From Torpedo marmorata (taxonomy: Eukaryota): a stretch of DNA of 64,000 nt. The notes beneath the pieces are model-generated. The model made no database searches. It saw nothing but the letters and a program-made list of their open reading frames with translations, and was not told the origin of the DNA. The stretch lies in contig OZ360229.1 in the NCBI GenBank assembly GCA_977017645.1, positions 89,528,001-89,592,000 on the forward strand, written 5' to 3'. A program made the position numbers and the translations under genes. Shown piece after piece: positions 10,960-62,403 of the stretch (position 1 is the stretch's first letter; each line of letters begins with the position of its first letter).

Positions 10960-11655
10960 ACCTGCACAGATACAGCACCTTTCACAAGATCCCAAAGCAT
11001 TTTATTGCTACCAACATAGTTGTTAAGATAGCTTTGGGTGCACTGTAGAAAATAAGGTTGTCAATTCACACACAGCAAGTTCCCTCAAACAATTATGAGA
11101 TAAGAGACACAATTTATTTTAGTGATAACGATAGAGATAAATAGTGACTGGGGAAATTACATTGCAAATCTTCCACAAAATAGTTTCCTGGCATCTTTTA
11201 AATCCACCTAAATATAAATGGGACATCCTTTTAACATCTCATCCACAAATCGATGACCCTAACTGCATATAGTGTTCCCTCAGTCGTATTGCGATGTTTG
11301 CTTTGATTTTGCATCCAAATCCATGGGAAGAGAGTAAAACACAATGCTGGAGAAACTCAGCAGGTCAAACAGTGTCCTTTATATAGCAAAGATATAAATA
11401 CATAACCGACGTTTCAGGCTTGAGCCCTTCATCAAGGTAAGATGAAGGGCCTTGATGAAGGGCTCAAGCCCGAAAAGTCAGTTACCGGTATGTATTTTTA
11501 TCCTTGCTATATAAAGGACATTGTTTGACCTGCTGAGTTTCTCCAGCATTGTGTTTTACTTCAACCACCGTGTCTGCAGACTTTCGTGTTTTACTTCCAT
11601 GGGAAGGGATTTGTGGGTACATCCTAACTCAAAGATGAACACATTATCACAGTGC
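10960..11655 (-). mobile_element. Ancient Deu-domain SINE (SacSINE1-like), interrupted by a Penelope-type insertion
   Basis: Blocks such as CACACAGCAAGTTCCC, ATCTTTTAAATCCACCT, TTTAACATCTCATCC and TCCCTCAGT resemble the reverse complement of the Deu-SINE consensus as recalled. The sequence resumes after the duplication at 11596-11606. Confidence 0.55.
11331..11595. mobile_element. Penelope-like element remnant: inverted pseudo-LTR pair
   Basis: About 105-bp inverted arms (11333-11437 and 11450-11560), flanked by the 11-bp direct repeat TCCATGGGAAG (11320-11330, 11596-11606). The same GCTGGAGAAACTCAGCAGGT motif is linked to GIY-YIG sequence at 24.5-25.1 kb. Confidence 0.8.
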
Positions 11656-12150
11656 ATTACCTTGAATTAAGTAAACAGTATTAATCAGCATTTTTGCAAG
11701 TTCCACAGCTTAAATAAATGTGCTGATGTGCAAGCCACTATAAAGTCCACTGAGAAATTTACAGATGATAACCAAAAGACTTTTACTTTCCATTGCAATT
11801 CAGTAATTAGTAGTTCAAATGTCATGTAGCAACAAACACACCAGAGGTATTCATCATGTTAAGATAAGGCAATAACTTCGTTTCTCACTACCATTTTCCT
11901 AAGCTTTTCGATGCTCCAAGTATGAACACTCTTTTCTAACCACTGCATTTAAATTTTCCTGTAAACTTCATCCTGCCTGTTATTTAAATGAAAAGATCTA
12001 ATAAGCTGTAATTAGATTCCTCTAAAAATCAGTTTTGAGGTATGCTGCTCTAAACAGAGGTTTGCTTCCTTCAACACATTGAGTAATACTTGATATCAAA
12101 TCCAAATTAACCTACAATTACGGTAAATAAGCACAAGCAGGAAACTATAC

Positions 12151-12264
12151 CTCAACATGTCCGCTGCTGGCGCAGAGGAAGCACACCACCCTAGGAGTGA
12201 TGGGTACAGATGTCAGGATGCTAAGTCCACCCATTTCCCACACATTTTCCACATCACAGTCCTC
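12151..12264 (-). CDS. KMT2A: KMT2A exon 10 equivalent (start of PHD1)
   Basis: 114 nt, AG/GT. EDCDVENVWEMGGLSILTSVPITPRVVCFLCASSGHVE. Confidence 0.97.
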
Positions 12265-13050
12265 CTACAAAAAGTCAGTAGAATTATATCAGAAAATAAA
12301 CAGCACACTTAAATTGTTCTGTAGATACGATTTAGTTAATGCGTCATGGCTATTCAAGTGTATCAACATTCGTAACTCTTCAAATCCAAATTCATGCGAC
12401 AGATTTTTGAATAGAGTCCCATTGTAAATACCTTTATTCAAATAGACCTTCACAAGAAGAATATCCAGTACATTTTACAATAAATATGATCACGTGATAG
12501 ATATGAAAATGGAATGATCAGGAAGCCAGGATGAATATACATGTACATAGAGAACAGTGACATAGGGCAATGACTACCCCAACCATCCCAGAACATTTTA
12601 GAACTTCAATTGGAGGAGTGCCTTCTAAACTTTGGCACAAACTAGAGTAAACAGGTTTCTTCCCAATCTTTAATTCAGATTACAATGGTGCCCATGAGAA
12701 TTCCCAAAATCATTACCAGCAATTTTCTGCATATTATTGTGAAAAGTAGACATGTTCACAACATGCCTTTATATCATTTCATTCAAAGTCAGAAGTTTTA
12801 AGTAGATCAAATGCACTGTCCTTGAGGTTGGTGGAAGTGGTGGGAGGGCATGGATAAATGCAAATTTCTTACACAATCAATTTTAGAAATTTACCAAGCA
12901 ACATAGTACAAAGTGGTAACTTGGTGTTATGGTGGCAGAATTAACAAAATGAAGAGTCATCATGCACTGATCCATTACACCAATGGAATGTTTCCATGCA
13001 GGAGTCTTCCCTGGTTCAATTGTGCTATGCAATATTTTATCCCTCTACAT

Positions 13051-13311
13051 TAGCCATTCTCAATCTTTTTTTCAGCTATGTTCCTACCCCCCCCCCCCCC
13101 CCACACTCTGCTCAAAGTTTATGGGCTCCCTTCCCCGTGAAGAAGTCAAGTTTTGGTTTCTTCTGTACTTCCAATTACATTTTTTTTAAAACAGAAAAAA
13201 AAATGTTTAGGTTGCATGGAGTGAAAAATAAATCAAGGCTTTTACTAAAATGTGCTGTGGCCCCTGGGGTGGGGGGGGGGGGGCGCGTAGGGCCCCCTTT
13301 GAGAATGGCTG
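13051..13311. mobile_element. Non-autonomous hAT (Charlie-like) MITE
   Basis: TIR (T)AGCCATTCTCAA / TTGAGAATGGCTG. 8-bp TSD CTCTACAT/CTCTAAAT. Second copy at 35623. Confidence 0.85.
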
Positions 13312-13500
13312 CTCTAAATTATTGTCTTTTGCTTCACAGTTAGTAAGAAATATGTTGAAAAGCTTGCAAGCATGCTTTTAGAAATGGGCACTGATTAATG
13401 GAGGGAAGAAAATATAAATGAAAATTGCATTCTACATTTCCCAGGGCTAACGTGGTCAATAGTCACAGCAAATGTGAACCCTTAGATTTCTTATTTCTAC

Positions 13501-13629
13501 CTTGAAATCCACTCTGATCCTGTGGACTCCATCTGCCAATAGCTTCTGTTTTCCACAACTGACATTTGTGAACGTGGTGAGCAGATTCAGAGTACTGGGT
13601 TCAAACTTACTGACAGGAATCACTTTGTC
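13501..13629 (-). CDS. KMT2A: KMT2A exon 9 equivalent
   Basis: 129 nt, AG/GT. DKVIPVSKFEPSTLNLLTTFTNVSCGKQKLLADGVHRIRVDFK. Confidence 0.96.
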
Positions 13630-13894
13630 CTAAAAATAAGAAGTAATGAAATCAATAAGTCTAATCTGCATTAAGATGCCATCTATTACTAATTATAAAA
13701 GCAGTGCCTGTGTAGGTAACACTACTAAAAAAAAAATCAAAACATTTCTAAATGAAATCCTTTACCCGGGGTCAACATTTCCAAAGCATACAATTTCTGT
13801 AAGTTCAAATACGATAGATCTCAATGCAAACTAATTTCTGAACAATAAATAAAATGAATGTCACTTGAATCTGGTTTATTTCAACCCCCTCCCC

Positions 13895-14068
13895 CAACCA
13901 ATTAGTTTTTCCTATCCTAATCCAGAGGAGTTGAGACCATCTGCAGAGATTCAGTTGCTGTCCCAGCTGAGATCAGCTCAATCAGCATGCATTAGGAATT
14001 GAAACAGAAAGCTTATCATCTGCATGACTCAGTATTACAAAATACAGTTTTATCCTGGGGAGCATTGC
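13895..14068 (-). mobile_element. Ancient LF-SINE-like fragment
   Basis: The minus strand reads TACTGAGTCATGCAGA...TGCTGATTGAGCTGATCTCAGCTGGG...TGGTCTCAACTCCTCTGGATTAGG..GGAAAAA, colinear with the LF-SINE 5' region as recalled. Confidence 0.55.
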
Positions 14069-14757
14069 GGAATGAATTTAATATAATTGGTGCAGGCAAA
14101 TTACTTTTCCAACTGAGTGAAATAAAAACAGAACCTTCAGTTCCAGAACTATACAGGTAGCAAGTGAAACCCTTTGGTTCACATTTCAACAGCAGGGAAA
14201 TTTTTTGAATATTTTAGAATCAGTATTTGGGGAAGGTGGTACGAGAAACTTGTTTTGTAGGCAACTTAGAGCTGACCTCTGTAACAAAATGCTTCAAGCT
14301 CAACATGTTCCTACTACCTCACACTGTAATGCATTTGGGCAAGAACAAGATTCCAAACTTGCTTTATCTCATGCATTGTTCCATTTGTTAGCCGTGTACC
14401 ACTACCATGAGGTTTTGTATTTCGACCACCTAAATGTCAATCATTTCTGAAACCTACCCTAATAATGAACATTTGCCCAAACAACTCTCCAATGAACAAA
14501 CAGCTAGAGGAAATCAATGGCACGAGGCGCACCTGTGCAGATGTAGTCACGACCTGACCATCCCTTTGCCTCCATATGTGCTGCTGGAGCCGCTGAGTTC
14601 CTCTTGCTATTTATTTTTTGCTCTAATGTCTTCAACTATGCAATTGTCTACAAGATTTCTCTCCAATACCCTCAAGTTCTCTTTCCAATAGCCCCAAGCC
14701 ATCTATTAGATCCTCTCTCCAAATCCTATCTCACTCACATTCACTCCCAAAAACATA

Positions 14758-14997
14758 GGGCAGCGCGGTTGGCGTAGCGGTTAGCGCAACGCCTCTGCAG
14801 CGCCAGCGATCGGGACCGGGGTTCGAATCCCGCGCTGTAAGGAGTTTGTACGTTCTCCGTGGGTTTTCCCCGAGGGCTCCGGTTTCATCCCACCGTTCGA
14901 AACGTACCGGGGGGTGTAGGTGAATTGGGTGTTAATTGGGCGGCACGGACTCATGGGCCGAAATGGCCTGTTACCGTGCTGTATGTCTAAATTTAAA
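14758..14997 (+). mobile_element. V-SINE (HE1-like), young CpG-rich copy
   Basis: Intact TGGCGTAGCGG and GGTTCGAATCC boxes, V-domain and CR1-like tail. Confidence 0.9.
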
Positions 14998-17900
14998 ATT
15001 TTAAATAATTTATAAATTATAAATCATAGAAGTTCCTTGCATAGTCCCAAAGGCATACATACCACAATTTGAGATAAGGATGCTATTTCAGTTCCTTTTT
15101 GAGTACATTTAATTTAGTAATATGAACGGAAGACTAGGAGTTAATATAATGCCTCACCTTTACTGTCTACGTAGTGGAAGTTGACCTAAACTAGACTTAA
15201 AAATATTTACTTTCCAAAGCAAGTGTATCTTAAAATTTGTTAAAACAGATCTATTTTGCGATCTGATTTTATTTTGTTCCAGTGGAGAAATGCCAGGTCT
15301 TCACTTCACAGATGTCCAGAAATCAAATTCAGACTACACCAGACTAAATCGAATTCCAGCACAGGTCCACAACCAATCACTCAATTGTACAGCATATTAT
15401 CATGTTCTGCAGAAAAACTGCTCAAATAAATCACTGAATGAAATAATGTGCTCTCAATCAAAAAAATTAGTGAATAACTTAACTGTAAAGAGTGTCACAG
15501 TCTTGGAAGTCAACTCCACTCATCACGAGCACTCAAAGAATACTAGCACTCACCAATCCAATGTTAATAGCAATAAACTATCATTTTTTTTCCCCCAGAG
15601 ATGAGCATCTAGGTCCTCATGAACTAATGCAGTTCATTCCACTTCAAATCAATGGACACGCTACAATGGAAAGTTCCTTAGAGATAGGCAAATTATTTAA
15701 CTGTGAATCAGGTAATATAACCTCTAACATTCATTTGCGTTTACACTGCCTCGTGCCTATCGTACATCATAACGAACGGGGGTCCAACCAAAAGCCAATT
15801 ACAGTCGGAGCATCAAAACAGTAGCCTTTCGCATCATCTAGAACAATACATTTGAAACTTCATTCTGCCAAACTAGGAAGCATTAACATTTTTCTTCATC
15901 AATGCTCCTTAACTCAACTTTGCTATTAGGAGCCAACAGTGAAATGGAATTGTGTAGAATAAAATTAAATCAGAGCTGGCCTTTCCTACTAAAGGAAATA
16001 AACAAAAATAGTTAGCGTTATCGGCAAAAAGCTAAAAAGCATAATGCTCTTTCAAAGAATGTACACGATATCCAATTTTAATAAAACAGATAAGGTTTCA
16101 TTTAATGAACAGGAGGGAAAGAAAACACCATCTTAGACTCAAATGGATTGATAAATGAAAAATTATTTCAGTACTCACAGCAGTTTTACTCATTGCAAAG
16201 CACAATTGGGGTTTAATATTTCCTCATCTCTCTTCTAGTCTCTTTTCTGTGCTTCACCTTTTATGCATTATATTTTCCTTCTCCACTCTCCTATTTAGAT
16301 CTCAGTTGAAACTTTCTAATTCATGACTTCTGTGTTGACTGTCTTTCTTCATGCTCTTCTCAGTGTCCCTTGTTCTCATTTATTCTGACTCAGTTTTCTC
16401 CTCTTAATTTTCATACTTTGATTCTTTCTTTCAGTACTCCCTCTGCCCGCTCAACAGAAACCTTCCATCAAGCAGCCTGGCAGTCTATAGAGATTTTAGT
16501 ATGAATTCACTGCCTCGTAAAAGTGGAAGAACATGTGGTTAAGTCCAATTTATCAAATACAGAGCCCCTACCCGAGCCAAGCTGCAGAAGACATTAATCC
16601 TGAGGGAGTGAAGGAATCTTCAACAGAAAAATCAACCTGAGCAACATTTGTACACCTTCCCGCAGAATGACAGAGCAGCTCAGGCAAAGAGCTGAAAGAA
16701 ACCCATCCTGGTCAATAAAAGTGAGAAGCACTACTGTTAAAAAACATCAACTCCACTGCCCTTTTTTCTTTTTAAATCAGTGAAATGTGAATACAAGATA
16801 AAGCACCCTAGATGGAATATTTCAATGCACTGTGGGAAAAACATGTTAGTATCATGTTTACAGGCTAGAAAAAGGCATGTGTGTTTAATACACTGTTCCT
16901 TAACATTAACTCAAACTTCAGGATCTAAGTCAGCAGAAACCATCGAGATGGCAGCGATTCTCTGCCAAGAAAAGATGAATCTTAGATTTGGATGGCTCTA
17001 CAAAAAAAAAAAATGCAATTTTGAAAAGCCCAATTAAAGCCAAAGCAGGAATTGTGTGCACGTTAGCAATGAAACCCTCTTTAAAAAAAATTCTGTGTTC
17101 GTTGCTCAAAGTAAACACCCTTTACATGACGAGCATATTTGAGGTTTCAGTTTACAATTTTAACAAGACCAGAAAAGAAATCATTTCTCTCATAATGAAA
17201 TAAAGTCATATTGAACAAGTAAACGAGAAGTGACAATGCTTCTACCAAAAGTAATAAAAGCTGAGCTTTAAGAAATAGCATTCCCTGAGGCGAGCTGGAA
17301 TTTTGGAGTGTAGACTGGGAAATAATAGATTTGGTCTCCATGAGCTTTCATTATGGGAAGTTAGCTTCTGATTTCCTGCTGTACTTCACCAATAAGACAA
17401 GACTTGGTTTCTGGGTAATTTTAAAAATTAACTACAAAGAAAGTAGCCACACTGGATTACATTTCAAAGATGTCCACATAGATAAAGACATTACTTAGAA
17501 CTGGATTAAGGGATATAGGCCTAGAATGTGCTGTCAACTGCTCTCAGCCAGGGCAACAGTTGGGATGCTACAAATGGTCTCAGTATCCCTGTCACAAATG
17601 TAAAAAGAAAATTATCAAGTAAAACGTCTGTAATGCTCCATACAGTCAAGGAGTTTATGGCACTCACTGTCTGGATTCGCATACATTAAAATGCACATTT
17701 GGCAATGCACCAGGAAACTGCCAGCCTTAGTGGAATTGTACCTGCACAAAGTAGGAGGTGGGGAGGAAATAAGGGAATTCATTTTAAAACAAGGTAATCT
17801 CCCTTTCAAACTATAAAGTTTCTACGTGAACCAAAATCAACAACACTACAAGTTTGCCCAATCCCATCAAATGATTCTCCACAGGTGGATAACACTAAGG

Positions 17901-18581
17901 AAGACATCAGGAAGAAAAATGATGCTTTCCTTCAAGTAGTGAATGGTCCCAAGGAGAATCAACAACAGGCTTCTCTTGTACATCCAGACAGACTCTGATA
18001 ACACATGCTGTACTTGTGCATGGCATGATGAAAAAGAGAAAGGGGCGAGGAAGACATGACTACAAACTAAAAGATGCAGTTATACAAGCTTTACAATTGG
18101 ATGTTCCTGAACAGAACTCAGCACAACACAAGTGTGGTCTACCAATGCGAGTACACATCTGACCTATGGTCTACAGTTACCTGTTATAACTCTACTGGTT
18201 GGAAAACTGCAGTAAAAATATCTGGCACATTGAGCATCACATATCTGAATCCCAGTTTATGTTACATTACATTGCACTGGGAATTGTAAATTGTGAAATC
18301 TAACCTGCGTAATACTGAAGGAACCTTTTGGCCTCAACATGAAACAGAGTTTAAGGCACTGTTCTGCTATTCATCTGGAACACAATAGTACAGCAAAAAG
18401 ACCAACTGATGTCTGGGACCTATAGAAGACACCTTAGGCAAATTAATTATTAAAAGTCTTGATACCGTGGCATACTTATTAATGTCACCAGAAGAACCTA
18501 GGAGAACACATGTATGCCAGAATGTTTGGAATTGATCTTTAATGTAGAATTAAAAACCTAAGATGAAAGTTTAAATCTCAC

Positions 18582-18658
18582 CTTTTCTTTCGGCTTTTTA
18601 GTTTTTAACTGAATATTGAAACGAGCAGGGGGTTTCTTCTGCTTGATCAGCTCTAGTG
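18582..18658 (-). CDS. KMT2A: KMT2A exon 8 equivalent
   Basis: 77 nt, AG/GTGAG, phase 1 to 0 as required to join exons 7 and 9. (A)LELIKQKKPPARFNIQLKTKKPKEK. Confidence 0.88.
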
Positions 18659-19019
18659 CTGGGGAAACAAAGATTTTATTAAATGATAAGCCAAGATGAA
18701 CCTTTTACTGACCACAGGTTCACACTTTGTGAGGCATTTTCCCCCACTCAATTTGATAAATGCAGTAAAATCCTGTTTTCTGGCAAAAGGCACAGCTGCC
18801 TTTTTTTGACTGAAAACGTCAGCAACTTTGTAGAACCTTTAACAAATATAACCCCATGGTGCTCCCGAATGAGTCAAATAATAAAGGCAGAATATAACTG
18901 AGCCATATGGACCACAAGGTCACACTGTATGTGTTTAATTAAAATGTCACCCAGTGCAGCATTTGGGGTTCTACGAATGGCCTCAGCATTCTACAAGCAG
19001 GCTCCAATCAAGTGAGACT

Positions 19020-19250
19020 CCAGCTTCAGTGACTCGGTCTGGGCATGGCATAGGAACACTCCAAGTCACACACCTTTCTGATGAGGAAAAATATTACCAT
19101 TCCTTCAATATCCCTGGTTCTAAATTCTTGAATACCTTTCCTGAACTTATTGCAGTCCACCTGCTGAAGGTGAGGCTACAAGTCCATAAAGCTAGCCCAC
19201 CACCAACCCACTCAAGGCAAGTTAAGGATGGGCAAGACAGATACTCCTGA
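19020..19250 (+). mobile_element. Old CR1-like LINE 3' fragment (an inverted relative lies at about 33260-33445)
   Basis: CACCACCAACCCACTCAAGGCAAGTTAAGGATGGGCAA-type 3' end, highly degraded. Confidence 0.4.
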
Positions 19251-20212
19251 TAGGTGACAAATGCACTTGTACATTTATTTTGTATGGCCCAGCTTTGTTA
19301 GGCTGAGCTGCCATGTAGTGGCAGGGAAATTAGCTGCATTGTCACCCAAGATCCATCGGGAATTAGAATGTTGAGGCGAGTAGTTTGCTTGCCTGCTCTT
19401 TTTGTTAGGAAATAAAGAACCCTACCAAGGAAGAATTAAATTAAATAAGTAAACTGAAAACAGATCATACATTTCAGGTCAATTACACACCAGCCACTGA
19501 ATTATTTGGCACATAATCCCAATAGCAAATGCACCAATGAATACAAGTAAACAGAATGACTGCATGGAAATTTTCATGCTCTCAGATGAATGATTATGGC
19601 AGCAAATGGAGATGACCACTCTTCAGAAATAGGAGTGATATACAATTTTTTAAAAATCTGATTGTTATGTAAACATGCTACAGAATTTTCCACTACCTGC
19701 CTGCAAGGAGGCTTTCTACAATCCCATCCTGGAAAGAGAATATTTACCTTGGCAAGACAGAACCAGCGTCAATCAGTTCCATGGTGTGAAAAATAATGCT
19801 GCAGCCCTCAGCCAAAAGACACAATCTAGCAAATCACAATGCTGCTTGCAGGGTGGTAGATCTGATTGCAGTGTCACTCTGTTCACACTCACTGCAAGAA
19901 CCTACCAACTACTTCACTCCTCCCACTTGCAAGTACTCAAACCTATATCCAATGTAGAGCAAGGTTTAACAGTCGTTACGCAAACTACAAGCCCATTATG
20001 CCATGCAGGGGTGCAGGTGAAGTGGAGGGAAGTGGCAGCATAGGATGAAAATTTGCACCTTGAAATTTAAACTGTACAATATTGATAAATATGCTTATTT
20101 CAACTGAGTTGGTGTCTTTTCAGAAAAGACTGAGAAGCTTCATAAGAAATTAGTACTAATATTACAGAACAAGAGATTCTACATAAACTTGACCTTGCCA
20201 TGTTCATGTTAC

Positions 20213-20575
20213 CTGATTCAATTTGCGGTGGCTGTTTTTTCTTTGGGTCAATCAACACCGGTTTGACAGATTCTTTCTTTAATTGCACAAGACCAGGTTG
20301 TAGAGGCATAATAGGTTCAGGTGGCTGAGGAAGTTGTTTGCTGGGTTTTCGCAGAGGTGAAACCACTACAGCCTGTTGCAGAGCTTCAGAAGGTGGAGAG
20401 GAGCTGCCTTCCTCAAACTGCTGGTCACTGTGTTGATGAGGAACCTGGTTTACTTTCTGTAAGTGCTCTTGTGAAACACTCTGCGGAGAGCTTTTATGGC
20501 TGATGTCAGTCTGCTGTTTTTCTGGTGGCATCTCCTTTCTATCTTGTATTTTTGTTTTCTTTTCCTTTTTCTTCA
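20213..20575 (-). CDS. KMT2A: KMT2A exon 7 equivalent
   Basis: 363 nt, AG/GT, phase 1 to 1. (V)KKKEKKTK...PKKKQPPQIES. Confidence 0.93.
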
Positions 20576-20838
20576 CTAATAATCAAGGTTAAAGTTTATT
20601 AGGTAAATTTATGAACAGACACAATTCTAATCAAGCTCATAAATTCCTATTTTCTCTCCTAAAGGCATTTACCAAAGATAAAATATAGTTTACTGTGCCT
20701 CAGATACCATATTCAAACAGCCATTCCTTATGCCGGGTTCATGCATTTATTTTTTATTTAACTCTGACCCAGTCCCGCAGCTTAATCTACCAACTAGTGT
20801 CCAGCTCTGGGCAGTTCAGTAGTGTGGACAACACTTAC

Positions 20839-20903
20839 CTTTAACTGGCTTTGGAGGAGGTACTTTGGAAGGCATCCATTGCAGATTCTGACATTTCCGC
20901 ATT
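20839..20903 (-). CDS. KMT2A: KMT2A exon 6 equivalent (end of CXXC)
   Basis: 65 nt, AG/GT. (K)MRKCQNLQWMPSKVPPPKPVK. Confidence 0.97.
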
Positions 20904-21324
20904 CTGCATTTAAAAAGAGGTTGCAAGATGTTATGAAATGGCATAAAATGATACAGATTAACAAACTGTTCCATCCACTTGAGTCTGCGGACACTACGTC
21001 TATAACAGCTTAGTCTCAAATTTGATCGTCTGTCTCAATGGAAACACCTTCACATATTTATCAAGTCAGAAATACTACAAATCATATGCACTGACTCCCT
21101 ACATCGGGGGTTATACACAAATGCATACAGATCCCACAAAACATATTTAGAGAGCCTGAAAGCTCAAAAGGGTCTGGAATAAAGGGCAGACTCTTCTATT
21201 ATTCCAGATTGATTCCCTGCAACTCAAGTTAGCAATTTTTTCTCTGGAGAAGTAAATCTCTGGCCTACTGCAATGCTACAATTGTAGGTAAATTCTATGA
21301 CACACGCATACGTACAGATTATAT

Positions 21325-22960
21325 AAGAATTAGAAGAAGAATTAGACCACGAGACCTCTCACATTTGCTCTGCCTTTCAATAAAATTAAGGCTGATCTTC
21401 TTACCATTTTAACCCTCTCAATCCAGCCTAGCCTGGAAAACTTTAACTCCTTCATTTATCAAAAATACATCTTTCTCTGCCTTAGTTATCACAGACTCTG
21501 CTTCTCTTGTCTCTCCAGAGAAAGGATTCCAAAAGCTCAAGACCACCTGATGGAAACCAGTTCAATGCACTGCAATCATTTAGATAATACTCTTGTTTAT
21601 CTTGCCAAATGATCAATTTCACATTTTCCCCCACATTAAACTCCATTTGCCAGACCATTGCCCATTCATTTAATCTATTTATGTCCCTTCTGTAACCTCA
21701 TGTCCTTTTTACAACTTACCCACTCACAGCAAAATTACCAATCATGCTTTTGGTGCCATCATCCAAGTCATTTACATAAATTATAAATACTTAAACCCAA
21801 AGCACCATCAATCTTGTAACTCACAATTACATCTTCCCAGTTAGAAAACAACTTCTGCCTACTCTGTCTTGTTAGTCGGCCAATCTTCTATACACACCAA
21901 TATACTTACTGCCTCTTGCAATGAATTACTTTCTGAAATAAACTTCAAAACACCTTATAAAATACCTTCAGGAAATCCAAGTGCAGCATATCCATCAGCT
22001 TTCCTTTATTATAGCATTTCCTCAAAGAACGCCAATAAAATGGTCAAACATGGCTTCCCTTTCACAAAACCACGTTTTCTAGCAATGACAGATGTTAAAC
22101 TAACTAGTCAGTGATGTCATGCTTTCTTTCTCCCTTCCTTTATGAATAAAGGAGTTGAATTAACCATTTTCCTAACTAATAAATCTTTCCTGAATCTGTG
22201 AAGTTTTGTAAAATTGAAATCAATACATTAACCACCACATTTTTAAAACCCAGGGTGAAGTTCACACTCCAACAAATTTGCTGAGTTCCACTTTCCTAAT
22301 GATTCTCATTTTTCCTGAGTTCCTTCTCTTCCAATTTCTGATTTACAAACATTTCTGGAATATTACTTGCATTCTCCATTGAGAAGATAGAACACAAAAC
22401 AGTGCAGCACCACAACAGGCCCTTCAGCCCACCATGTCAGCATTGATCATGCTACCAATCTAACTAACCTCACCGTCTGCAACCCTCTATTCACCGCCTG
22501 TTCATGGGTCGGTTGAAATGCCTCTGAAAAGTTGCTATCATATCTGCTTCTACCAAGTCCACTGACCGCATGTTTCAGGCACCTATAACTTGCCTTGCAC
22601 ATCTTTAAATTTTCCCCCTCATCCTAAACCTACGCCCTCTGGTATTTGACATTTTCACTCCAGGAAAAAGACACTGACTAGCTCCCCTAACTATGCCACT
22701 CGTAATTTTATAAACCCCAGCTTCTGTCACTCCAGAGAAAACAATCTAAGTTTGTCCAAACTCTCCAATTCAGGCAACATCCTGGTGAGCCTCTTCTGCA
22801 CCATTTCCAAACACTCTACATAGTTATAGTACGGTAACCTCAACTGCATACAATACTCTAAATGTGGCCTAAAGTTTTATACAGATGCAACATGACTTGC
22901 AAATTTTATACTCAATGTCAATGATGATTGTGAAGATTGATGCAAAATATCTGTTTAATT
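21325..22960 (-). mobile_element. Nested degraded CR1 LINE fragments
   Basis: CR1-like blocks AAACTCCATTTGCCA, ACAGGCCCTTCAGCCCACC (a second 3' end at about 22390) and AACTGCATACAATACTCTAAATGTGGCCT. No open frame. Confidence 0.65.
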
Positions 22961-23599
22961 TGAGTAGCATAGATAAAGCTGAAATGTTATTCGGCTAGAA
23001 CAAACCACATTAAAATCCAATACCAAGCCAAATCAAAACATCCATCTTCAATTTTTATCTAAGTTCAATAAATAGGGATCAAGGAAGAATCCACTGTTGA
23101 CTTTCCCCAACCTAAGCAGAGTTGCAACTGAAAATTTATAGTTGATCAGTTTTCCTGAACGACATCAGTGAAGCAGAATGAACAAGGATAGAATCCGGAA
23201 CTTTCCTGCATTCTGCAAAAAGAATTTGCCAGCAACAGATGTTTGCATTCCTCATCCAACATCTTCACTATGTAAATCAAGGATTAAATATTAAACCGAG
23301 GGTCAGCATGCTATAAACTGGGCATTAAACCTTTCATGGCTCTATTTGAAAAATCTGTATTCCACCACAAATTCATCTGTCAATCCAAACCACAAAACTG
23401 ATCATTCATTTTCTTTACTGTTTAAAAACACAAATTGCATGCAACATAACAATCATATTTGCCTATTGCAGCAAAAAAAAATCATTTGCGAATATGAAAT
23501 ATTTCTCAGATAAGCCACTGCATAGATAAATCTTACCATTTCAGAAAAATATTTAACCCACTCTTGATTTCAAATAGCTGCATATGAAATTTTACTCAC

Positions 23600-23825
23600 T
23601 TGCAGCATTGCTTTTTGACATTTCGACCACCAAACTTGGGCTTATCCAAGCAATTTGTACATTGGCCACAGTCGTCTGGAACTTGGCAGCCTGGACACTG
23701 CCCACACCTACGTGACCTCCTCCCTTTTCGAACAATTGGCTCCTGTGGGACTTTGTGTTTGGCGACTGGTTTAATTACTGGTGTTGGTGGTTCAGCATCC
23801 TCTGACCCAGCTACTGATGATTTAT
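23600..23825 (-). CDS. KMT2A: KMT2A exon 5 equivalent (CXXC domain)
   Basis: 226 nt, AG/GT, phase 1 to 2. (D)KSSVAGSEDAEPP...RKGRRSRRCGQCPGCQVPDDCGQCTNCLDKPKFGGRNVKKQCC. Confidence 0.98.
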
Positions 23826-24494
23826 CTGCAAGACAGAGATGGTTTCATATTGATTGCTTCCTTAAGTGCAAGTGGTTAAAATCTGATCTGATCTGAATTT
23901 CTGTCCGGAGGTGTCGTCCAAGGATACATAGCATTGGCGGGAGATCCTGTTCACCTTGGAAGTGTTTTAATTTCCACTGAGCAACAGTCATCTAAATAAT
24001 CCAAGACTATTTTTTTAAGTTTACAACAGAAGTATTGTCAGGTAAATAAATAAGCACAGGCAATCCCTGCGTTATGGGGAGATTGCATTCCTAGAAAACC
24101 GTCTGCATTGCGATTTTCCGAAACACAAAGCCGTATCATCTTCAATTGTCAAGAAAGTCAAGTTGAAAAAAATTAACTATTTCCTGTATAAATTTGATTA
24201 AATTTTTATTCTGTTCCCAAGATTTACTGGTAATGAATTCAGTAAGGGTACATTTCTGTTATTGAAACTAGTGTAACACAGGGTAGAGGATTTCAAAGGC
24301 TTTTTGCTTACTGCCTTGAATACCCTGCTGGCTACAGGTGTAAAAATTTTGATGTCATCAAGAACCAAAAGAGTGTCTGTTATTTTTAAGGTCATGAACT
24401 AGAGTTTTAAAATTTTAATCTAATCCATCAGATTTATCATAAGACCGAGAAACGTTCATATGGTCAAACAAAAGCAAAATATGAATCTTCTGAG

Positions 24495-25145: not shown

Positions 25146-27769
25146 GGAAGGATAGAAGAATGAGAATTAATTTTATTTTTGAAATATATTAGATTCCAAG
25201 GAGGATTCACAAGATGGAAGTTGAAAGTGAGTGCATCTAAAACAGTATTTCAGAATAAGATGTTTTCCATTTAAGAGAGTGAAGAAGAAAAACCTCTCAA
25301 AGGATTAAGACTCTTAAATTCTCTGTTCCAGAAACCACAACACCTGAAGAAATGTTGTGAATAGTTCCACCATGGAATCAAGCCGGGCAAATAAAGGAAA
25401 ATCAAGCAACAGGATCATATCTGGAGCCCATTTCCTGACAGGCCTTAAAGTGGGCTCACTTTGACTCTGGTGATAATGTGAATAAAGTATGAACGATGAC
25501 ATCCTTATCTCCTTAAAATGAGAGTTAATGAGATCAGGCTTCATCGCTGGGCCCAAAAGAAGTCGGGTTCTACACAGGACTTCCTTCAAAATCACAGGAA
25601 ATAGATTTCAAATCACATAACATCTCCACCTTGTAGCTGGCAGAATCACTGAATAGACACTTCACATCAGCTCATTTTTATTTAGTGACTTTAGTGATCA
25701 TCTCATTGATCAAATCTGTCAAACATTAATTTTAAAAAAATAACTCCCCTGAAGGAATCAAAAATGAAAACTGAAAAGTTTGATCACTCAAAATAAATGC
25801 AGACAGAAACTTAAAAATCTAATTCCTACATCGTCAACATCACTCAAAATACAAATGGAAATTGAAACTCATGTTGGACTTTGCCATCATTATTAGTCAC
25901 CTGAGAAAATATCAAAACATTAATGCAGGTGACAATGCACCATAAGAGAACAGAACATGTAATTAGTTAAGAACTAAATCGAAGCCTTTTTACTTTGATA
26001 CCACAAAGATCATACTTCACTAACAGAAATTACACACTTCAGTTTATTTTCACTTATTGGAAAGAAACGGAATACACTTTCTGGGTACCGGTAATTACAT
26101 TTAGCTTTATACATTCTAATAGACTGACATTACACCGAGCAAGTCCAGGCTTGTTCAGATTAGTTTTCCATTGTAAGGAATTCAAGCTTACAGGGAACAA
26201 AGGCTCTGCCTGCCAGCCAGCCTACTTGAGGCAAGACGACTATCTAACAGAAGTCCATAATGGTTCTTAAGACACTTGCACTGACACTATCCTCTTTTCA
26301 CATGGTAACCTAACTGAACATTACAAATTATGCAACTTAATTTAGATCCTACTCTGTCTGGAGCAATCTTCAAGATATTACGATAAAACAGATCATCAGA
26401 AGTTCATCCTCAGTCACATGCACTAAACATACAACAGGGTATGTTGTATTGAGATCATTGAAATTGATCTCAATTTCAGAAAGTTGGTGATACTGAACTT
26501 TTTTGGGTTCTATTTTGTACAAGGGATCGTAATTCGATTGGAACACTGCCCATTTCAGCCTCTTGGCATCAAGTGATCCCAGTTCAGGTACTGCATAATT
26601 AAACACAGATCAATGTTTCCTTCATTCTTTGAATAAACTTAATCACTTCCAGAGAAAGTGTAAATACCCTAAACCAATATGGCTGTTTACATTTGCCACA
26701 AAAACTAACCCTTGGCCTAAAACAAGGACAAAAATGCAAACATGTTTTCAAAGTTTTATTTGGACAAATGCATCCACCTGAGGCAAACACCCAATCATCC
26801 CTGTGGTAAATTAGCTCGCTTTCAAATTCAGTTTAGTATTGCTCAGTTACAACACATTTTTACAATTCAGACTGATTCCAAAGCAAAGCAGTAACTCTGA
26901 AGAGGAAAGGGTCTCACTCCATTTCCCTACTCCATCATATGCAGGGAAAATTCAACCTGGCTTACAAACATTCCACGATCTTTGTAAATCCATCAAGCCA
27001 TAGTTTAAATATTTAAAGTCGTGCATCTCAAATATTTAAATTTTCATCCACTGGAAGACAGCTACGTCCAGACATGAACATAACGCTTCTAGGTATGGCT
27101 GTCCAATTTCAGTCAAACATTGTGAACACTTTTCCACCTGGGTTGAACTGTAATTGCAAAGCAATTTCCAGCTCTCAAATAAAGTTGTAAACCAAATTGT
27201 AGTTACTAACTGTTGTGTTTCATTCATCACTTTTTTTATAACAAATACTGCATGCTCTCCATTCTACTTTTGCAGTGTTATCAAGTTTTTTAAAAATGCC
27301 CAAGTTCAAAAATGTCTTTCATTCAATAAATTAACGAATTTATGGATCTCATTTACAAAGGAGGAACAACCAGTGTTTTACTAAGCAAATAAAACTGTCC
27401 TGTTAAAATGATGCTTGAAACAAAATCAAACTGAGACTTTCTGAAAATGACAGCAATAACGTTGGCATTTTTATACAATTAATTTGAGTTCTATTTGAAC
27501 AGTTGTATATTCTCTGAATGCATGCTTTAATTGGTTCAAAGTAAAGACATGCACTGGAAGTAATAATTCAGTTAGAAATCAGTTGGATCACATCAAAGCC
27601 AATTAATTTATTGCTCAAATTCTGTTAACATTTCACAGAACAAATATGTGCAAACATCACTTTCTAGATAATAACACTTATTAAGGTGATTTAGATGATT
27701 ATACTACAGTAGTTATATTTATAGTTATGGATCAAACAAAGACAAATGAATAGTTTGGAATAATCCGTT

Positions 27770-29016
27770 ATGTGCGTGGAAAGTCATGTTTGACCAATCT
27801 TGTTGAATTTTCTGAAGAGGTGACTAGGAATGTTGATGAGGGTAGAGCAGTGGATGTTGTCTATATGGACTTCAGTAAGGCCTTCGATAAGGTTCCGCAT
27901 GGGAGGTTAGTTAGGAAGGCTCAGTCGTTAGGTATTAATTTGGAGATAGTCAATTGGATTCAACAGTGGTTGGAAGGAAGATGCCAGAGAGTAATAGTGG
28001 ATAATTGTTTGTCAGGATGGAAGCCAGTGACAAGCGGTGAGCCTCAGGGTTCGGTATTGGGACCATTGCTGTTTGTCATATACATTAATGATCTGGAAGA
28101 TGGAGCGGTAAATTGGATTAGTAAATATGCCGATGATACTAAAATAGGGAGAATTGTGGATGAAGAGGGTTTTCAAGGATTGCAGAGGGATGTGAACTGC
28201 TTAGAGAAGTGGGCTGAAAGATGGCAGATGGAGTTTAATGCTGATAAGTGTGAGGTGCTTCATTTTGGAAAGAATAATCAAAGCAAGACATACGTAGTAA
28301 ATGGGAGGGCATTGAAGAATGCAGTGGAGCAGAAAGATCTTGGAATAACGGTGCATTGTTCCCTAAAAGTAGGATCGCATGTGGATAGGGTGGAGAAGAA
28401 GGCCTTTAGTATGCTTGCCTATATAAATCAATGCATAGAATATAGGAGTTTGGAAGTGATGATGAAACTGTACAAGGCATTGGTGAGGCCAAATTTGGAG
28501 TACTGTGTGCAGTTCTGGTCACCAAATTATAGGAAGGATATCAACAAAATAGAGAGAGTGCAGAGAAGATTTACAAGAATGTTGCCTGGGTTTCAGCATC
28601 TGGAATTCAAAGAAAGATTGAACAAATTAGGTCTTTATTCGTTGGAACGTAGAAGGCTGAGGGGAGATTTGATAGAGGAATTTAAGATTATGAGGGGGAA
28701 AGATAGCGTTGATGTGGATAGACTTTTTCCATTGAGAGTAGGAGAGATGGATACAAGAGGTCATGGGTTGAGAGTTGACGGGAAAAGGTTCAGGAGTAAC
28801 ATGAGGGGGAACTTCTTTACTCAGAGAGTGGTTGATGTGTGGAGGCTGGGTCAATTCTGTCAAAAATTGGATACCGGTAGGTATATGGATGGGAGGGGAA
28901 TGGAGGGATATGGGAAGGGTGCTGGTAGGTGGGATTAGAGGAGGGTACTTGGATCGGTGCGGACTAGAAGGGCCGAACTGGCCTGTTTCCGTGCTGTAGT
29001 TGTTATATGGTTATGT
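27770..29016 (+). mobile_element. 5'-truncated CR1 (HER1-like) LINE with a nearly open RT frame (27772-28938)
   Basis: SCLTNL, YMDFSKAFDKVPH, PQGSVLGPLLF, KYADDTK and LVRPNLEYCVQFWSP. Tail GTTATATGGTTAT. Possible 7-bp TSD GTTATGT (27767, 29010). Confidence 0.95.
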
Positions 29017-29208
29017 TCCTCATGCTGAAATTCCAAGTAGAAATATCCCAACCAATTTTTAAGATATCACACTTTTAGTACTCCATGTTTTAGAAAATGT
29101 AATATTATAACTAAATAGATGTTCAGAACCAGAAGCCCATCTACAATTTTAAAATTGTGTCTGAAAAAAAGTCACACTAAGGGCCAATAATGCCTCCAGG
29201 TCCCACTT

Positions 29209-48185: not shown

Positions 48186-48217
<32 letters not shown>

Positions 48218-50800: not shown

Positions 50801-51052
50801 CTACTTCAAATAGATTTGCTTTATAAGTAAAGCTGCATTAATTCTATTTTTCTGCTGTCATCACAATATATCACACAACATACTAAACTTTTGCTTTGCA
50901 TAGAATAGGCACAATTTATCTTCCTATCCACCTTTCAATAGATCTTAGTAGTTTAACAGACATGGAGTTTAAGTACCGTATATCAGAATCAGGTTTATTG
51001 TCATGAAATTTGATGTTTTCCCACAGCAGTATGGTGCAGAACAAGGTCCAAA

Positions 51053-51490
51053 AATTCAAGATTCAATTTATTGTCATAGTAATAAAACAGCATCATATTC
51101 CATGAAATTTCTTTTTGCCTGCTGCAAGGCAGACAGATTCGCCACCGGCAGAAATTGCCTAAGCGCCTCTTACATTCCTTACAGTCAGAGAAAGAGAAGC
51201 AAAAGAGAGCCCCCCCAGAGTCACCGAGTGTCCATAGATTCGCCTCCAGTGCTTCCACAGCCACACAGAGTCCAGTCCAAACCATCGGCAACCCGAGCTC
51301 CAGATCCGAACATCCAACACGGTCAGGGCGCCCTCGGTACCCCCTCGCATCCCGGTTCCGATACCTGGTACTCCTCCAGCCAGTTCAAGCCAGCCTCCAG
51401 CAGTCCACAGCCCGGCGTGAGTCCCCCGACAGCAGTCTCCAGCAGCCCACAGCCTCCTCGCCTCGAGTCGCCAGCAGCCCGCCGCATGCA
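51053..51490 (-). mobile_element. Family X non-autonomous retroelement, CpG-rich young copy
   Basis: Homology to 47132-47766. 51057-51209 appears identical to the reverse complement of 61477-61629. Confidence 0.8.
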
Positions 51491-51744: not shown

Positions 51745-51828
51745 TCTTTTTTAAAATCTCTTTATTAATTCCATAAAATCATGGATATAACAGTTCATTC
51801 ACTATATACGTTTACAGAAAAAAAGCAA
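51745..51828 (-). mobile_element. 84-bp retroposed poly(A) fragment (probable extreme 3' end of an L1)
   Basis: 15-bp TSD AGATGCTGCTTTCTT (51730-51744, 51829-51843). AATAAA plus A-rich tail on the minus strand. Confidence 0.8.
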
Positions 51829-52530: not shown

Positions 52531-53687
52531 AGGAAAGTTGTTACAGAACCAATGTAAACAGTACAGGGTGGAAGGAATGAAGCAGGGGCTCCACACGGGA
52601 TTGTAGGGTGATCTTATCAAAGCATTCAAGATCCTTAGGCAATGTGACAGGGAATGTCATCAGATTCCCATTTGGTTTTTCCAGTGTAAGCGCCAAAATC
52701 TGTGGAAGGGAAGAAATGTGTTGTAGAGGGGTTGCATCTCCTATATACATTTCTACGAGTGGGTGAATCTCAAACAAAAGGGTCACGTATTAAATGACTA
52801 TCTCCTAACCTTGTAAGCGAGTTGCATTAGAACTTCTGGTAGAAGGTGATGAACATTTGGAGTTCTCCACCCCAGAGGGTTAGATTATCAGGAGTATTTA
52901 AAGAGAGGAAGCAGATTCAGTTGAAAGATGAGGGAATTGGGGGCTGTGGAGAACTAGTTACAGGACAAGCTTTGGGAAGATCAGCCATAATCAAATTAGA
53001 TGGCAGGGTAATCTGGAGGGGCTGAGTGATTTACTCCTACTTTTTTTGTGCGCACTTTTGGCTCAATTTCAAATCCTACAATTTCAGATAACTTGCTTTG
53101 TCTGTATTAGAACAGGTTAAATCATCCATCTGCTCAGTTTTGCCCTTCCTGAAGCCACGTCCTGCATCTCTGCATTTCACAATTCTTACATTCCTTTGTC
53201 CAAGTTTACAATTAAACGACTAAATACAACTAATTAACTAGAACAGATGGCTGAGAAAGCTATGCTTTGTAGCTGCAATATGGGAACTAGTGGACCCCAT
53301 AGTGGTAAACAGTGACTATATCTGCAGTGTTGGCTGCTCAAGAGACTGGGGTCGATGAGCTGGAGTACAAGCTCCAAATACTTCTACACAACAGGGGGGA
53401 GGAGGGGAGAATGATCTGAACACATATTTCATGAGGCAGTCACTTCCTTTAGATTAACTTTCTCTAAACTACTGAATAATTAGGGATAGGATGAAGGCAG
53501 AAGAGGCATGTAGAGAGAGCCAGAGGAGCCTCATCTGATTACTTTTTCCAAAAGGAACAATGTTCTTGCTCCTGAGGAGCAGAATTGGGAATGCAAGGAG
53601 GATGTGCAAATTATTCAGAACAGAAAGCCATTCAAGAGAGGAGAAAAAATAAATAAATTTATTTATACCCACATTAATAACTACCGG

Positions 53688-54090
53688 TAGTTATTAATGG
53701 GGGTATAAATAAATTTATTTCTCAAATGTATAGATTGTTACAGAAAAAAATGCCTAAACCAGGAATTCATAAATCAAGATTAAAATGGGAATTAGATCTG
53801 AATGTAACAATAGATGAGGAACATTGGAAAGAAATATGTAAACAAAGTATGATGAAGATTATTAACGTTAGATATAACTTAGTGCAATATAATTTTTTTG
53901 CATCCGTTATATTTAACTCCTAAGAAACTAAAAAAATTTAATCCGACATTATCAGGTTTATGTTTTAGATGTAATAGAGAGGAAGGTTCTTTTGTACATT
54001 CTACGTGGTTTTGTCCAAAGATATATGATTTTTGGTTGAAAGTTAAAAAGTTTTCAGATAAAGTATTGAGAATTACACTTGTTATGGACC
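53688..54090 (+). mobile_element. Internal L1 ORF2 fragment (same family as the 29209 and 41503 copies)
   Basis: INKFISQMY.L.QKKMPK.GIHKSRLKWELDLNV and LYLTPKKLKKFNPTLSGLCFRC. Confidence 0.9.
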
Positions 54091-54091
54091 A

Positions 54092-56272: not shown

Positions 56273-56983
56273 TAGTGAAATCCCCAGTATCCGGCACCTA
56301 TGGGGATTGTGGATGCCGCTTATGCGAATTTTCCAGCTGCCTGAGACACACCCTTACAATGCCTAATACACCTGCGTTAAGAATAAACAGTTTAAGAGAC
56401 AAAAGACAGTGCAAAATGTAAAGTAATTTGAAAAGAAAATCAGTATTGCAGACCTTAATTATGTAAAGTTCACTTTAATCAGGTAATCCCCATAAATTAC
56501 AAAATTTAAATTCAAACCCCAGTCACTGGCGCTGAAACAGCATTGTACTAACCACTGCGCTAACCGTGGCGTCGTCATAATTAACCCCTTCCCCCAAGTT
56601 TACAGATAAAGCCTTACTAATATACGGTACTTAATAATATACTAATAAAGACTCTTACTAGGCAGGGATAGGGAGACACTTTGGGAGAGTCGCCCCAGTG
56701 GCATCGGCCGGCTCTTCATCTTGGGTGACGCCATTTTATTCAAACACAACTTTATTCAAACAGCTGCTGCGGACAGGGCTGAATGTTTGCTCCCATCTTC
56801 ACCAAGGGGTTGTGTGTTGCTTTGGAGAACATTTACTTTTACAATTTTAAACTTTTATTTCAATTTTTATCTTTTCTTATTTATTTTCACCGTTTATTTA
56901 TTTATTTCCTCGGGATTATTTTTTTTTTGCTGGTTGCTTGGGGTTGCCGGTTGCTTGAATTCCGGATACCGGGGAATTTACTG
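56273..56983. mobile_element. Non-autonomous pogo/Tigger-like DNA transposon (contains a V-SINE head at about 56505-56572, minus strand)
   Basis: 22-bp imperfect TIR TAGTGAAATCCCCAGTATCCGG / CCGGATACCGGGGAATTTACTG followed by TA. Interrupts CR1 coding sequence. Confidence 0.75.
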
Positions 56984-59189: not shown

Positions 59190-59745
59190 ACTATGATACT
59201 GGGCAGGATCAAAGAAAGAGAATAAACAGATCCTTCCCAAGTTTGCAGGCTGTTATAACTAGCTGTGATCAATGCATGGGCCCTAGCTAGTCATCATACA
59301 TATGAATGATTTGACTGAGGGAACTAAACATTACCGGTATTTCAAATTTGTTGACATTACTAAACAAGGTGCATTTGTAACAGGATTATAAAAAGGCTTC
59401 AAGGGGATATGGTCAAACTCAGTGAGTGGGGAGAACGTTGCAGATGCAATATCATGTTGAAAAATGTGAAATCGCTCAGTTTATTGCATACTGCAGAAAA
59501 ACAGAGTATGTGTTAAATCGCAAGACTGAGCAGCATTGGTTTTCAGAGAACTAGGAGTGCTTGTACACAATTTACTGAAGGCAATTAGGAGGGAAAATAA
59601 TGTTAACTTTTTTCCCCCCAAAACAAGCTGACTGCAGGAAACCAGTCTTATTGCAATTGCATAGGGCCTTGGTGAGACCACATCTGGATTACTGTGTAGT
59701 TATAAATTCCTTGCATAAGAATGTATTTGCTATGGAGGAATTACA
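59190..59745 (+). mobile_element. Highly degraded CR1 RT fragment
   Basis: Y.NDL.EG, KF.D, LSEW...Q.QY.VEKCE and RALVRPHLDYCV remnants. Confidence 0.7.
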
Positions 59746-60722
59746 AATTGCCTTTCCTTTACGAGCTACTAGAACTGAGGTATTACTATCTGCTGCACTT
59801 GTGGAAATAATTTGCCCTAATAACTACTCAAGCCTCAACTTCCTATGTGTTTTAATTATTGTACATCCTCCCATTTAGTGTACAGCTTCTGGAGAGCAAT
59901 CAGAAGAGTACACTGAACAACTTTTGTTTCTAATCACAGCCATGGTAAAATCAATGGCCAAATCTCTTGTTAGACTTGAAATCAGTTAATGAAGCACAAA
60001 CTTCTACAATTAGGACTTTGACGTTCTCACTTGTACCACAGTTTTTATAGATACAGTATTATTAAACCGAACAAATGCTGCCATCTGTGTTCCAGAGACA
60101 AAAGTCACCATGATCATAATTATCTTGTCATCTTTTATATTTTTAAGTGTGCTCTTGAAATTTTGGCAATTGTTGAAATGCAAGTCGAGCACAACATTCC
60201 TCATAGTAATGGTGAAAGGAATAATGCAAAATATATTTTGATTTTATTTCCAAATTCATGTCAGAAAAATTACTGATCTATACAAAATGAATTTTTATTT
60301 TTTTTTAAATTTCATTTATACCCAATTTAGGGCAAAGCAGAATTGAACTTCGATTTTTCAGAAAAAAAGAAATTAATCCAAAGCAAAATACTGCACATGG
60401 TAGAAATCTGAATTTAAGGTGAAAATGCTGGGTATTTGAATAATTTTTTTACCCCACAGATTCTGCCTGACCTGCATTTCTGTCCCATTCAGGTTGCAAC
60501 GTAACAATTATTTTTATCAGTTTAATAACTGCAAAGTAGTTGATTTGGCTGTTTGTCATGTAGAACTACAGCCTGATTGTAGAACTTGTCTTTGTCATAA
60601 AGGACGACCCCCACAATATAGCTATTCGAGTTACACAAATTCACCCTTATACAATTCACTATGTTAAACCCCCGAGATACAGAATAAAATTCACTCTCAC
60701 ACAATTTGTGTGGAAAAATATA

Positions 60723-62403
60723 CAGTGCCCTCCATAATGTTTGGGACAAAGATACAAACAATTCACATGTAATTAAAGTGCACATTCCAGATTTTATTCA
60801 AGTTTATTTGTATACATTTTGGTTTGACAATGTAGAAATTACAGCACTTTTTATACATAGTCCCCTCATTTCAGGGCACCATAATGTTTGGGACATTTGG
60901 CTTCACAGGTGTTTGTGAGTACTCAGGTATGTTTAATTGCTTCATTGGTGCAGATATAAGAGAGCTTGGCTTGCTTCTAAGCTTTGATCACCTTTGGAGT
61001 CTGTAGTTGCCATTTTTCAACATGACGACCAGAGTTGTGCCAATGAAAGTCAAAGAAGCCATTTTGTGGCTGAAAAACAAGAGGAAAACACTAAGAGAAA
61101 TCGCCAAAACCTTAGGATTACCAAAATCAACAGTTTGGAACATTGTTAAGAGAGAGTGTACTGGTGAGCTCAGGAATCGCAAAGGGACTTGTATTCCAAG
61201 GTAGACCTCCACTGCTGATGACAGAAGAATTCTCATCACAATGAAGAAAAATAACCGTATTTCCGACAGATCAAAAACACTCTTCAGGAGGCAGGTGTGG
61301 ATATGTCAAAGACAACTGTTCGCAGTAGACTTCATGAACAGAAATACAGAGGCTACACTGCAAGATGCAAACTACTAGTTATTCACAGAAAGGATGGCCA
61401 GAATAGTTTGCCAAGAATTATTTAAAAGAGCCTGCAGAATTCTGGAAAAAGGTCGTGTGGACAGATGAGACCAATACTCTCTTTTGCTTCTCTTTCTCTG
61501 ACTGTAAGGAATGTAAGAGGCGCTTAGGCAATTTCTGCCGGTGGCGAATCTGTCTGCCTTGCAGCAGGCAAAAAGAAATTTCATGGAATATGATGCTGTT
61601 TTATTACTATGACAATAAATTGAATCTTGGATTAACCTGCATCAGAGTGATGGCAGGAGCAAATTGTGGAGGCATAAAGGAACTGCCCAAGATCCAAAGC
61701 ATACCACCTTTGCCATGGTTTGCATCTTGCAGTGTAACCTCTGTACCGTATTTCTGTTCATGGAGTCTTCTGCGGACAGTCGTCATTGATATATCCACAC
61801 CTGCCTCCTGAAGAGTGTTTCTGATCTGTGGGACATGCGTTTGGAGGTTTTTCTTCATTATGATGAGAATTCTTCTGTCATCAGCAGTGGAGGCCTTCCT
61901 TGGAATACAAGTCCCTTTGCGATTCCTGAGCTCACCAGTGCGCTTTCTTTTTAATCACGGTAATCATAACGTTTGGGTGATGTTTCTTACTGTTTTATTC
62001 TTGTTTTTCAGCCTCAATGGCTTTTTTGACTTTCATTGGCACAACTCTGGTCCTCATGTTGAAAAATAGCAACTACAGACTCCAAAGGTGATCAAAAGCT
62101 TAGAAGCAAACCTAGCTCTCTTATACCAGCACAAATGAAGCAATTAAACAGATCTGAGTACTCACAAATACCTGTGAAGCCAAATGTCCCAAACATTATG
62201 GTGCCCTGAAATGAGGGGACTATGTATAAAAAGTGCTGTAATGTCCACACGGTCAATCTAAAATGCATACAAATAAACTTGAATAAAATCTGGAATGCGC
62301 ACTTTAATTACATGTGAATTGTTTGATTACAAATTGAAAACTGTGGAGCACAGGGACAAATAAAGGAAGAAAGTGTCTGTCCCAAACATTATAGAAGGCA
62401 CTG
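60723..62403. mobile_element. Tc1-family transposon derivative with about 650-bp inverted arms (fold-back), TA-flanked
   Basis: TA|CAGTGCC...GGCACTG|TA. Internal direct repeat CCATAATGTTTGGGACA (IR/DR type). Transposase remnants REIAKTLGLPKSTVWNI and WTDET. The right arm is an inverted copy of the 5' end. Confidence 0.9.
61477..61629 (+). mobile_element. Family X 3' fragment inserted in the Tc1 transposase just after WTDET
   Basis: Reverse complement of 51057-51209. The transposase resumes (INL.QSDG) after it. Confidence 0.88.

Follow-up and report, generated by a model that had tools for sequence, protein, structure and literature searches.

In the Tc1/mariner superfamily, the transposase nicks the non-transferred strand a few nucleotides in from the element end, and the 3′ overhangs so produced are turned into short footprints by end joining; PMC6943129 gives the Sleeping Beauty footprint as TACAGTA/TACTGTA. 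Passer elements, a group of pogo transposons, have CCGTA ends and a target consensus AAGTACTT (AAG-TA-CTT type), and PMC9976928 already lists skates and a sawfish as hosts and reports footprints of 0-4 bp in HeLa cells; PMC7386202 names BrkDBD and HTH_Tnp_Tc5 domains as marks of the group. Genomic scars of Passer are not reported in the accessible parts of these two sources. In rice, PMC4423477 found few clean excisions (8 of 94 perfect, most of the others messy) and counted 2.6-2.8 Mariner insertions for every excision between two species. Here we describe a 64-kb stretch of the Torpedo marmorata genome (C41:89,528,001-89,592,000, contig OZ360229.1 of assembly GCA_977017645.1; hereafter, the window), in which the words TACCGGTA (TA-CCGG-TA) and TACCGTA/TACGGTA recur, together with a search of the 6.22-Gb assembly. 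On sequence comparison, the five- and six-base insertions represented by these words are very probably excision scars of CCG-ended Passer elements, and the complete explanation, in which the six-base form likely arises through pairing of a self-complementary CG, is highly probable.

The words have the build expected of Tc1/mariner footprints, in that extra bases lie between two TA where one TA stood, and CCG and CGG are the ends of two resident element families. The five-base form is the exact analogue of the Sleeping Beauty footprint (TA, terminal bases, TA), whereas the commoner product here is six bases long (a four-base footprint), keeps the reading frame and brings no stop; furthermore, the scars are counted in a natural genome and not in an assay. 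With Passer, as characterised in PMC9976928 and PMC7386202, the elements found here share CCGTA ends, TA duplication, short inverted repeats, BrkDBD and HTH_Tnp_Tc5 domains, a DD35D triad and an AAG-TA-CTT-type target, but they number at least 22,000, compared with 11 in the one skate row with a count in PMC9976928. The published 0-4 bp footprints may include the present four-base form. As in the rice census (PMC4423477), excision sites of DNA transposons are counted in natural genomes, but the scars described here are stereotyped and by estimate outnumber the resident elements, a measure that differs in kind from the rice ratio. Both the mechanism and the Passer family are known; what is unusual is the stop-free six-base product. 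A literature search that left most subscription papers outside its reach yielded neither genomic TACCGGTA scars nor a census of such scars, the rice comparison being the nearest; PMC12455594 contributed nothing further.

Within the window, TACCGGTA occurs five times, where Markov models of orders 1, 2 and 3 predict 0.14, 0.16 and 0.25, and no other TA-NNNN-TA word is as enriched; TACCGTA and TACGGTA together occur six times (1.2-1.7 expected under the same models). The words are conspicuous because the window is depleted in CpG, to 0.34 of expectation. All nine motif positions of a preliminary description of this stretch were recovered on recounting. The motif is enriched over a Markov background in the window and, once repeat-borne copies are removed, is enriched genome-wide as well. 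The interpretation offered there withstood all three of the refuting tests that it named, which concern enrichment, the repeat consensus and the presence of a CCG-terminated element. Two 7-mers absent from its list, at 22830 and 36096, show a net difference of 0 in five of five and three of three paralogues, respectively, and are not insertions.

Each site was compared by pairwise BLAST with paralogous repeat copies from fetched genome stretches. Direct support for a scar was obtained at five of the nine sites, the other four having no paralogue to compare (Table 1). For two of the five, the preliminary description had offered one arm of an inverted repeat as a control for the other, and the extra bases at 11483 (six, with A at -3 and T at +3) and at 61744 (five) are indeed missing from the opposite arm. 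Its claim of an insertion at 28872 is borne out by the larger set of paralogues but not by the single copy at 44.4 kb used as control, which aligns ambiguously; the read-through as DTGRY that it gave is correct, since the frame 27754-28935 (394 aa) is stop-free through the scar, which adds Thr-Gly in frame. At 53682, the right flank recurs in inverted orientation left of the TA, in place of sequence of the repeat that we take to be a LINE, whereas 11 of the 14 other paralogues listed have a plain TA and the leftward continuation; the lost left flank was not found nearby. The repeats resemble those of a shark or ray, and the labels CR1, LINE and Tc1 used here for repeats of the window are likewise our presumed names.

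Table 1 Scars, candidate scars and associated repeat structures of the window (A-3/T+3, A at -3 and T at +3 of the TA target)
Feature	Position	Strand	Observation
Host inverted-repeat element	11333..11560		Arms spaced ~228 nt end to end; serves as internal control of the 11483 scar
6-nt scar TA-CCGG-TA	11483..11490		Right arm of inverted-repeat element; 6 nt absent from 29/34 paralogues
Candidate 5-nt scar TA-CGG-TA	12119..12125		No spanning paralogue; full target signature A-3/T+3
Candidate 6-nt scar	26086..26093		No spanning paralogue; T at +3 only
6-nt scar	28872..28879	+	Near 3′ end of LINE frame (presumably CR1-like); 11/18 paralogues without the 6 nt
Candidate 5-nt scar TA-CCG-TA	50974..50980		No spanning paralogue; full target signature
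Palindrome, 35-bp arms, 1 mismatch	53651..53720		Centred on 6-nt scar 53682-53689
5-nt scar TA-CGG-TA	56623..56629		In repeat copy; 2/3 paralogues without the 5 nt; full target signature
Candidate 6-nt scar	59332..59339		No spanning paralogue; T at +3 only
TA-flanked CAGTG-ended fold-back element (presumably Tc1-like)	60723..62403		Arms ~620 nt, 87% alike
5-nt scar TA-CCG-TA	61744..61750		Right arm of fold-back element; opposite arm without the 5 nt (1/1)

Across the genome, we examined 105 TACCGGTA sites, 34 of them within three repeat families and 71 family-free. Most were fetched for holding the motif, a choice that we judge not to bias the insertion test. Twenty-five of the family-free sites were testable, and 19 of these carry six extra bases relative to their paralogues, compared with none of 28 testable control words containing CpG. 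The five-base form was assessed at 30 TACCGTA sites, the first 30 of a matched class of 5,877 matches: 11 are five-base insertions, 10 represent repeat-family sequence, 7 have no paralogue and 2 fall elsewhere. Four extra bases were seen at none of 62 TACGTA and none of 240 testable TACCTA/TAGGTA words, and scar lengths of 3, 4 or 7 nt gave nothing above noise. As side observations, TATGGTA words with five extra bases at L009:9713 and L146:3510 are possibly CpG-decayed TACGGTA scars, and at L087:8433 a CCGGTA one base after TACCGGTA might represent a double scar.

The raw genome-wide count of TACCGGTA, 83,690, was rejected as a scar count because 32 of the first 50 matches on contig C1 lie inside the three repeat families (25, 5 and 2, respectively); the apparent clustering of the word on C1 is due mostly to one family. 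None of the five window sites falls into these families. The flank class V-TACCGGTA-B, which shuts out all three, has 22,385 matches genome-wide; nine other words of the form TA-N-CG-N-TA, counted with the same flanks, total 80,552 and average 8,950 each. It should be noted that a young family with an internal TACCGGTA (L081, L087, L090, L099-L102 and others on C1; copies ~97-99% alike) lacks the target signature discussed below; half of the first 50 genomic matches (25) come from it and a further 5 from a second family. For one of the three, the family sequence is an amplified scar. A non-autonomous Passer subfamily (L013:456-1280 and its relatives L008, L051, L063, L151, L174, L077, L206-L209) has been amplified together with a six-base scar; the TA concerned is an insertion hotspot inside the element and also occurs empty, filled, CpG-decayed or with deletions of 4 or 8 bases, which imprecise excisions may explain.

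The preliminary description had predicted a TA-flanked donor with CCG ends and had seen none in the window. Both statements agree with our findings: no Passer copy lies inside the 64 kb, and an abundant Passer family is present genome-wide. A TA-CCGTA end pattern gave 17,596+17,681 matches in the assembly (control, 1,015+1,025), mostly as facing pairs 0.7-2.3 kb apart. In family 1, the copies listed are either autonomous and ~1.9-2.4 kb long or non-autonomous, 0.8-1.6 kb long and provided with a tandem array in their interior; a second CCGTA-ended family measures 0.9-1.4 kb (L005:5539-6429, L011:5402-6816, L107:853-1802). Together, the two families have 43,906 recognisable ends (control, 0), hence at least ~22,000 elements. 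Of particular interest is a copy located 100 kb left of the window, 2,045 bp long including both TA, with an open 449-aa transposase frame in which PF03184 (DDE_1; E 3.6e-28), PF09607 (BrkDBD; E 2.2e-15) and PF03221 (HTH_Tnp_Tc5; E 5.6e-12) are recognised and whose catalytic triad D181, D288 and D324, with a spacing of 35, is of the DD35D type. Its identity to 16 other locus matches ranges from 89.5 to 98.4%, and a sequence search of the PDB with the transposase found no solved relative. The inverted repeats of ~26 bp, starting with CCGTA and bordered by TA on both sides, fit the Passer limit of <30 bp, and the size and frame fit the range of 1.6-4.0 kb with one frame of 400-500 aa. Judged by ends, TA duplication, domains, DD35D triad, size and target, the predicted donor is a Passer element of the pogo group. 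One Passer copy lies 5.4 kb past the right end of the window, and the 200-kb neighbourhood holds 8 family-1 donor ends compared with ~1 expected from the genome mean.

In the non-autonomous Passer copies L051-L080, the tandem array has a 27-bp unit and several frames are open for 200-500 codons. A search with DDE_1 did not lead to the donor, the readable ends among the 30 best loci being of the CAG type; these loci (L021-L050, from 15,861 first-look candidates) fall into seven or more CAG-type families of pogo-like elements.

Scars and donors are linked by the target signature A-N-N-TA-N-N-T that they have in common. The frequency of A at -3 is 0.90 among donor ends (n = 51), 0.78 among scar half-sites (n = 138, from 69 sites, two net-0 sites having been dropped) and 0.84 among verified half-sites (n = 38), compared with 0.32 for background TA. 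Of the 22,385 family-free sites in the genome, 14,893 (66.5%) have both A at -3 and T at +3, as opposed to 1,353 of 16,760 (8.1%) in the reversed control. Furthermore, a single TA in a non-autonomous family was encountered in three states: empty (L008), scarred (L013, L098, L115 and others) and filled, the last with a Passer copy in four genome places, in three of which both junctions are in view. The ages of scars and donors, as read from CpG decay, also agree: at most 5,152 CpG-decayed six-base forms (background included) stand beside 14,893 intact ones, and 13 of 123 donor-end CpGs are decayed in a sample partly selected for intact ends.

Excision can be pictured as follows. The element resides in a TA, which it has duplicated, with the preference A-N-N-TA-N-N-T observed here. 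By analogy with Tc1/mariner chemistry, the transposase would cut it out and leave CCG-3′ on both flanks. If the last two bases paired, CG with GC and without mismatch, filling in one base on each side would yield TACCGGTA; if all three bases overlapped, with one C:C mismatch, TACCGTA or TACGGTA would result. The scars seen today would be what remains, an estimated ~45,000 of six and ~25,000 of five bases. Among five terminal triplets modelled with a three-base cut, CCG alone gives a mismatch-free overlap, and the predicted products are those seen. A three-base cut with CG pairing is the probable source of the six-base form. The palindrome at 53682 fits self-complementary ends, since such a structure would result if two ends from the same side were joined, but no other was met among the 71 sites, and fold-back synthesis could also account for it.

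Overhangs of two bases are left by Tc1 and Tc3 in nematodes, whose footprints arise by end-to-end joining. If the same Passer donor left CC overhangs that were joined in this way (TA-CC-GG-TA), no CG pairing would be involved and the six-base word would be identical; a two-base cut is also in keeping with the published Passer footprints of 0-4 bp (PMC9976928) and with Tc1/mariner footprints made of the first or last 2-4 nucleotides (PMC6943129). Yet such a cut predicts TA-CC-TA or TA-GG-TA by loss of one overhang, and the 0 of 240 mentioned above speaks against this, if weakly, as few are expected; moreover, the five-base form, about half as common as the six-base one, would require a mismatched one-base overlap. 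We regard this main rival as unlikely, although it outranks the others. Elements might also have been lost without transposase, by deletion between the 2-bp CG (or TA) end repeats during replication or break repair, which would turn a filled site into either of the two words, both microhomologies being offered by the CCGTA repeat start. However, undirected two-base homology should generate many deletion lengths, whereas only +5 and +6 recur, and CAG-ended elements leave the canonical five-base scar in the same genome, as transposase cuts would; we consider such a route very improbable. Least credible of all is that the word merely reflects repeat consensus or chance, a concern raised in the preliminary description that holds for 32 of the first 50 C1 matches, for the 10 of 30 TACCGTA sites in families and for the net-0 words at 22830 and 36096, and may hold singly for 26086 or 59332, but is refuted for the family-free class, where 19 of 25 testable sites are six-base insertions and the target signature of the donor is present.

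Several observations weigh against the assignment to Passer excision or limit its reach. Six of the 25 testable sites are not six-base insertions (one +8, two +4, two 0, one unclear), the two +4 sites lying in TA runs. The filled copies of the three-state TA hold different inserts and therefore represent independent insertions into paralogous TA, which do not prove the ancestry of the scars; nor can scars be assigned to family 1 as opposed to family 2. The scar totals were scaled up from sequence sampled where a single contig begins. In the public DNA run compared over 11000-29500 (X1; share of words 0.48; 12 of 28 indel rows seen), the contigs show no empty site at 12119 or 26086, the two testable positions; the contig over the former has 4 gap letters and that over the latter 5 (the gap column being read as letters), too few for an empty site. 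Finally, such scars are not peculiar to Passer in this genome, as 5 of 62 testable TACAGTA/TACTGTA words in 1.06 Mb (3 by stricter rules) are five-base insertions, and the prominence of the CCG scars may come mainly from the rarity of CpG. Five-base CAG/CTG scars of CAG-ended elements are exemplified by L149:6715, L151:3448, L159:8890 and L105:2664.

Scaling of the 14,893 sites for the full signature (0.65-0.80) and for the flank class (0.37-0.50) gives an estimate of 36,000-61,000 six-base scars, with a central value of 45,000. From the five-base matched class of 5,877 and a matching six-base class of ~6,400 (hand count: 43 in 100 strand readings), the ratio of six- to five-base scars is put at ~1.8, a weakly constrained value, which corresponds to ~25,000 five-base scars. 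The total, ~70,000, amounts to ~1 per 90 kb and to roughly two to three scars per surviving element. The density of one per 7 kb previously suggested is therefore a local peak, the genome-wide estimate being roughly tenfold lower: the window has 5 six-base sites compared with 0.45-0.94 expected (p 1e-4 to 3e-3, uncorrected for the picking of the window by its motif). Local hopping was considered for C1 and is not supported, the gaps between 50 family-free sites fitting an exponential distribution (Kolmogorov-Smirnov p 0.46). Nine of 49 gaps are shorter than 30 kb compared with 4.0 expected (p 0.018, for one of three cut-offs tried), and the distance from scar to donor is not shorter than random on C1 (p 0.12).

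The two residues added by the six bases are, depending on frame, Arg-Tyr, Pro-Val or Thr-Gly; in no frame does a premature stop arise, and the product is therefore a plausible source of two-residue insertions. Beyond the 394-aa frame at 28872, LINE copies with frames open through a scar extend to 722 aa (L084) and 555 aa (L141). The gain of two residues foreseen in the earlier proposal was thus seen in LINE copies and not in host genes: inspected by eye, the stop-free frames across the 71 family-free sites resembled LINE or other repeat frames, or noise, and none was recognised as a host exon. Tentatively, one might picture Passer as a near-precise six-base mutagen, which by virtue of its self-complementary cut ends would leave more scars than copies, insert two residues into host proteins (+Arg-Tyr, +Pro-Val, +Thr-Gly) and, through same-side joins, generate palindromes or rearrangements like that at 53682; we hold this wider role to be doubtful. 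Of the two halves of cut-and-paste transposition, excision is the one that seldom leaves a record in genomes; here it appears as a word that can be counted and that has a target signature of its own. Former excisions can thus be tallied, dated through CpG decay and set against the surviving copies, and therefore the excision rate and the choice of germline repair become testable in a vertebrate-sized genome. Were Passer used as a gene-delivery tool, its scar would often leave the gene in frame.

The fold-back element at the right end of the window is the host of the 61744 scar and not a donor. Its spacer contains a 157-nt repeat that is 99% identical to a copy at 51053-51209.

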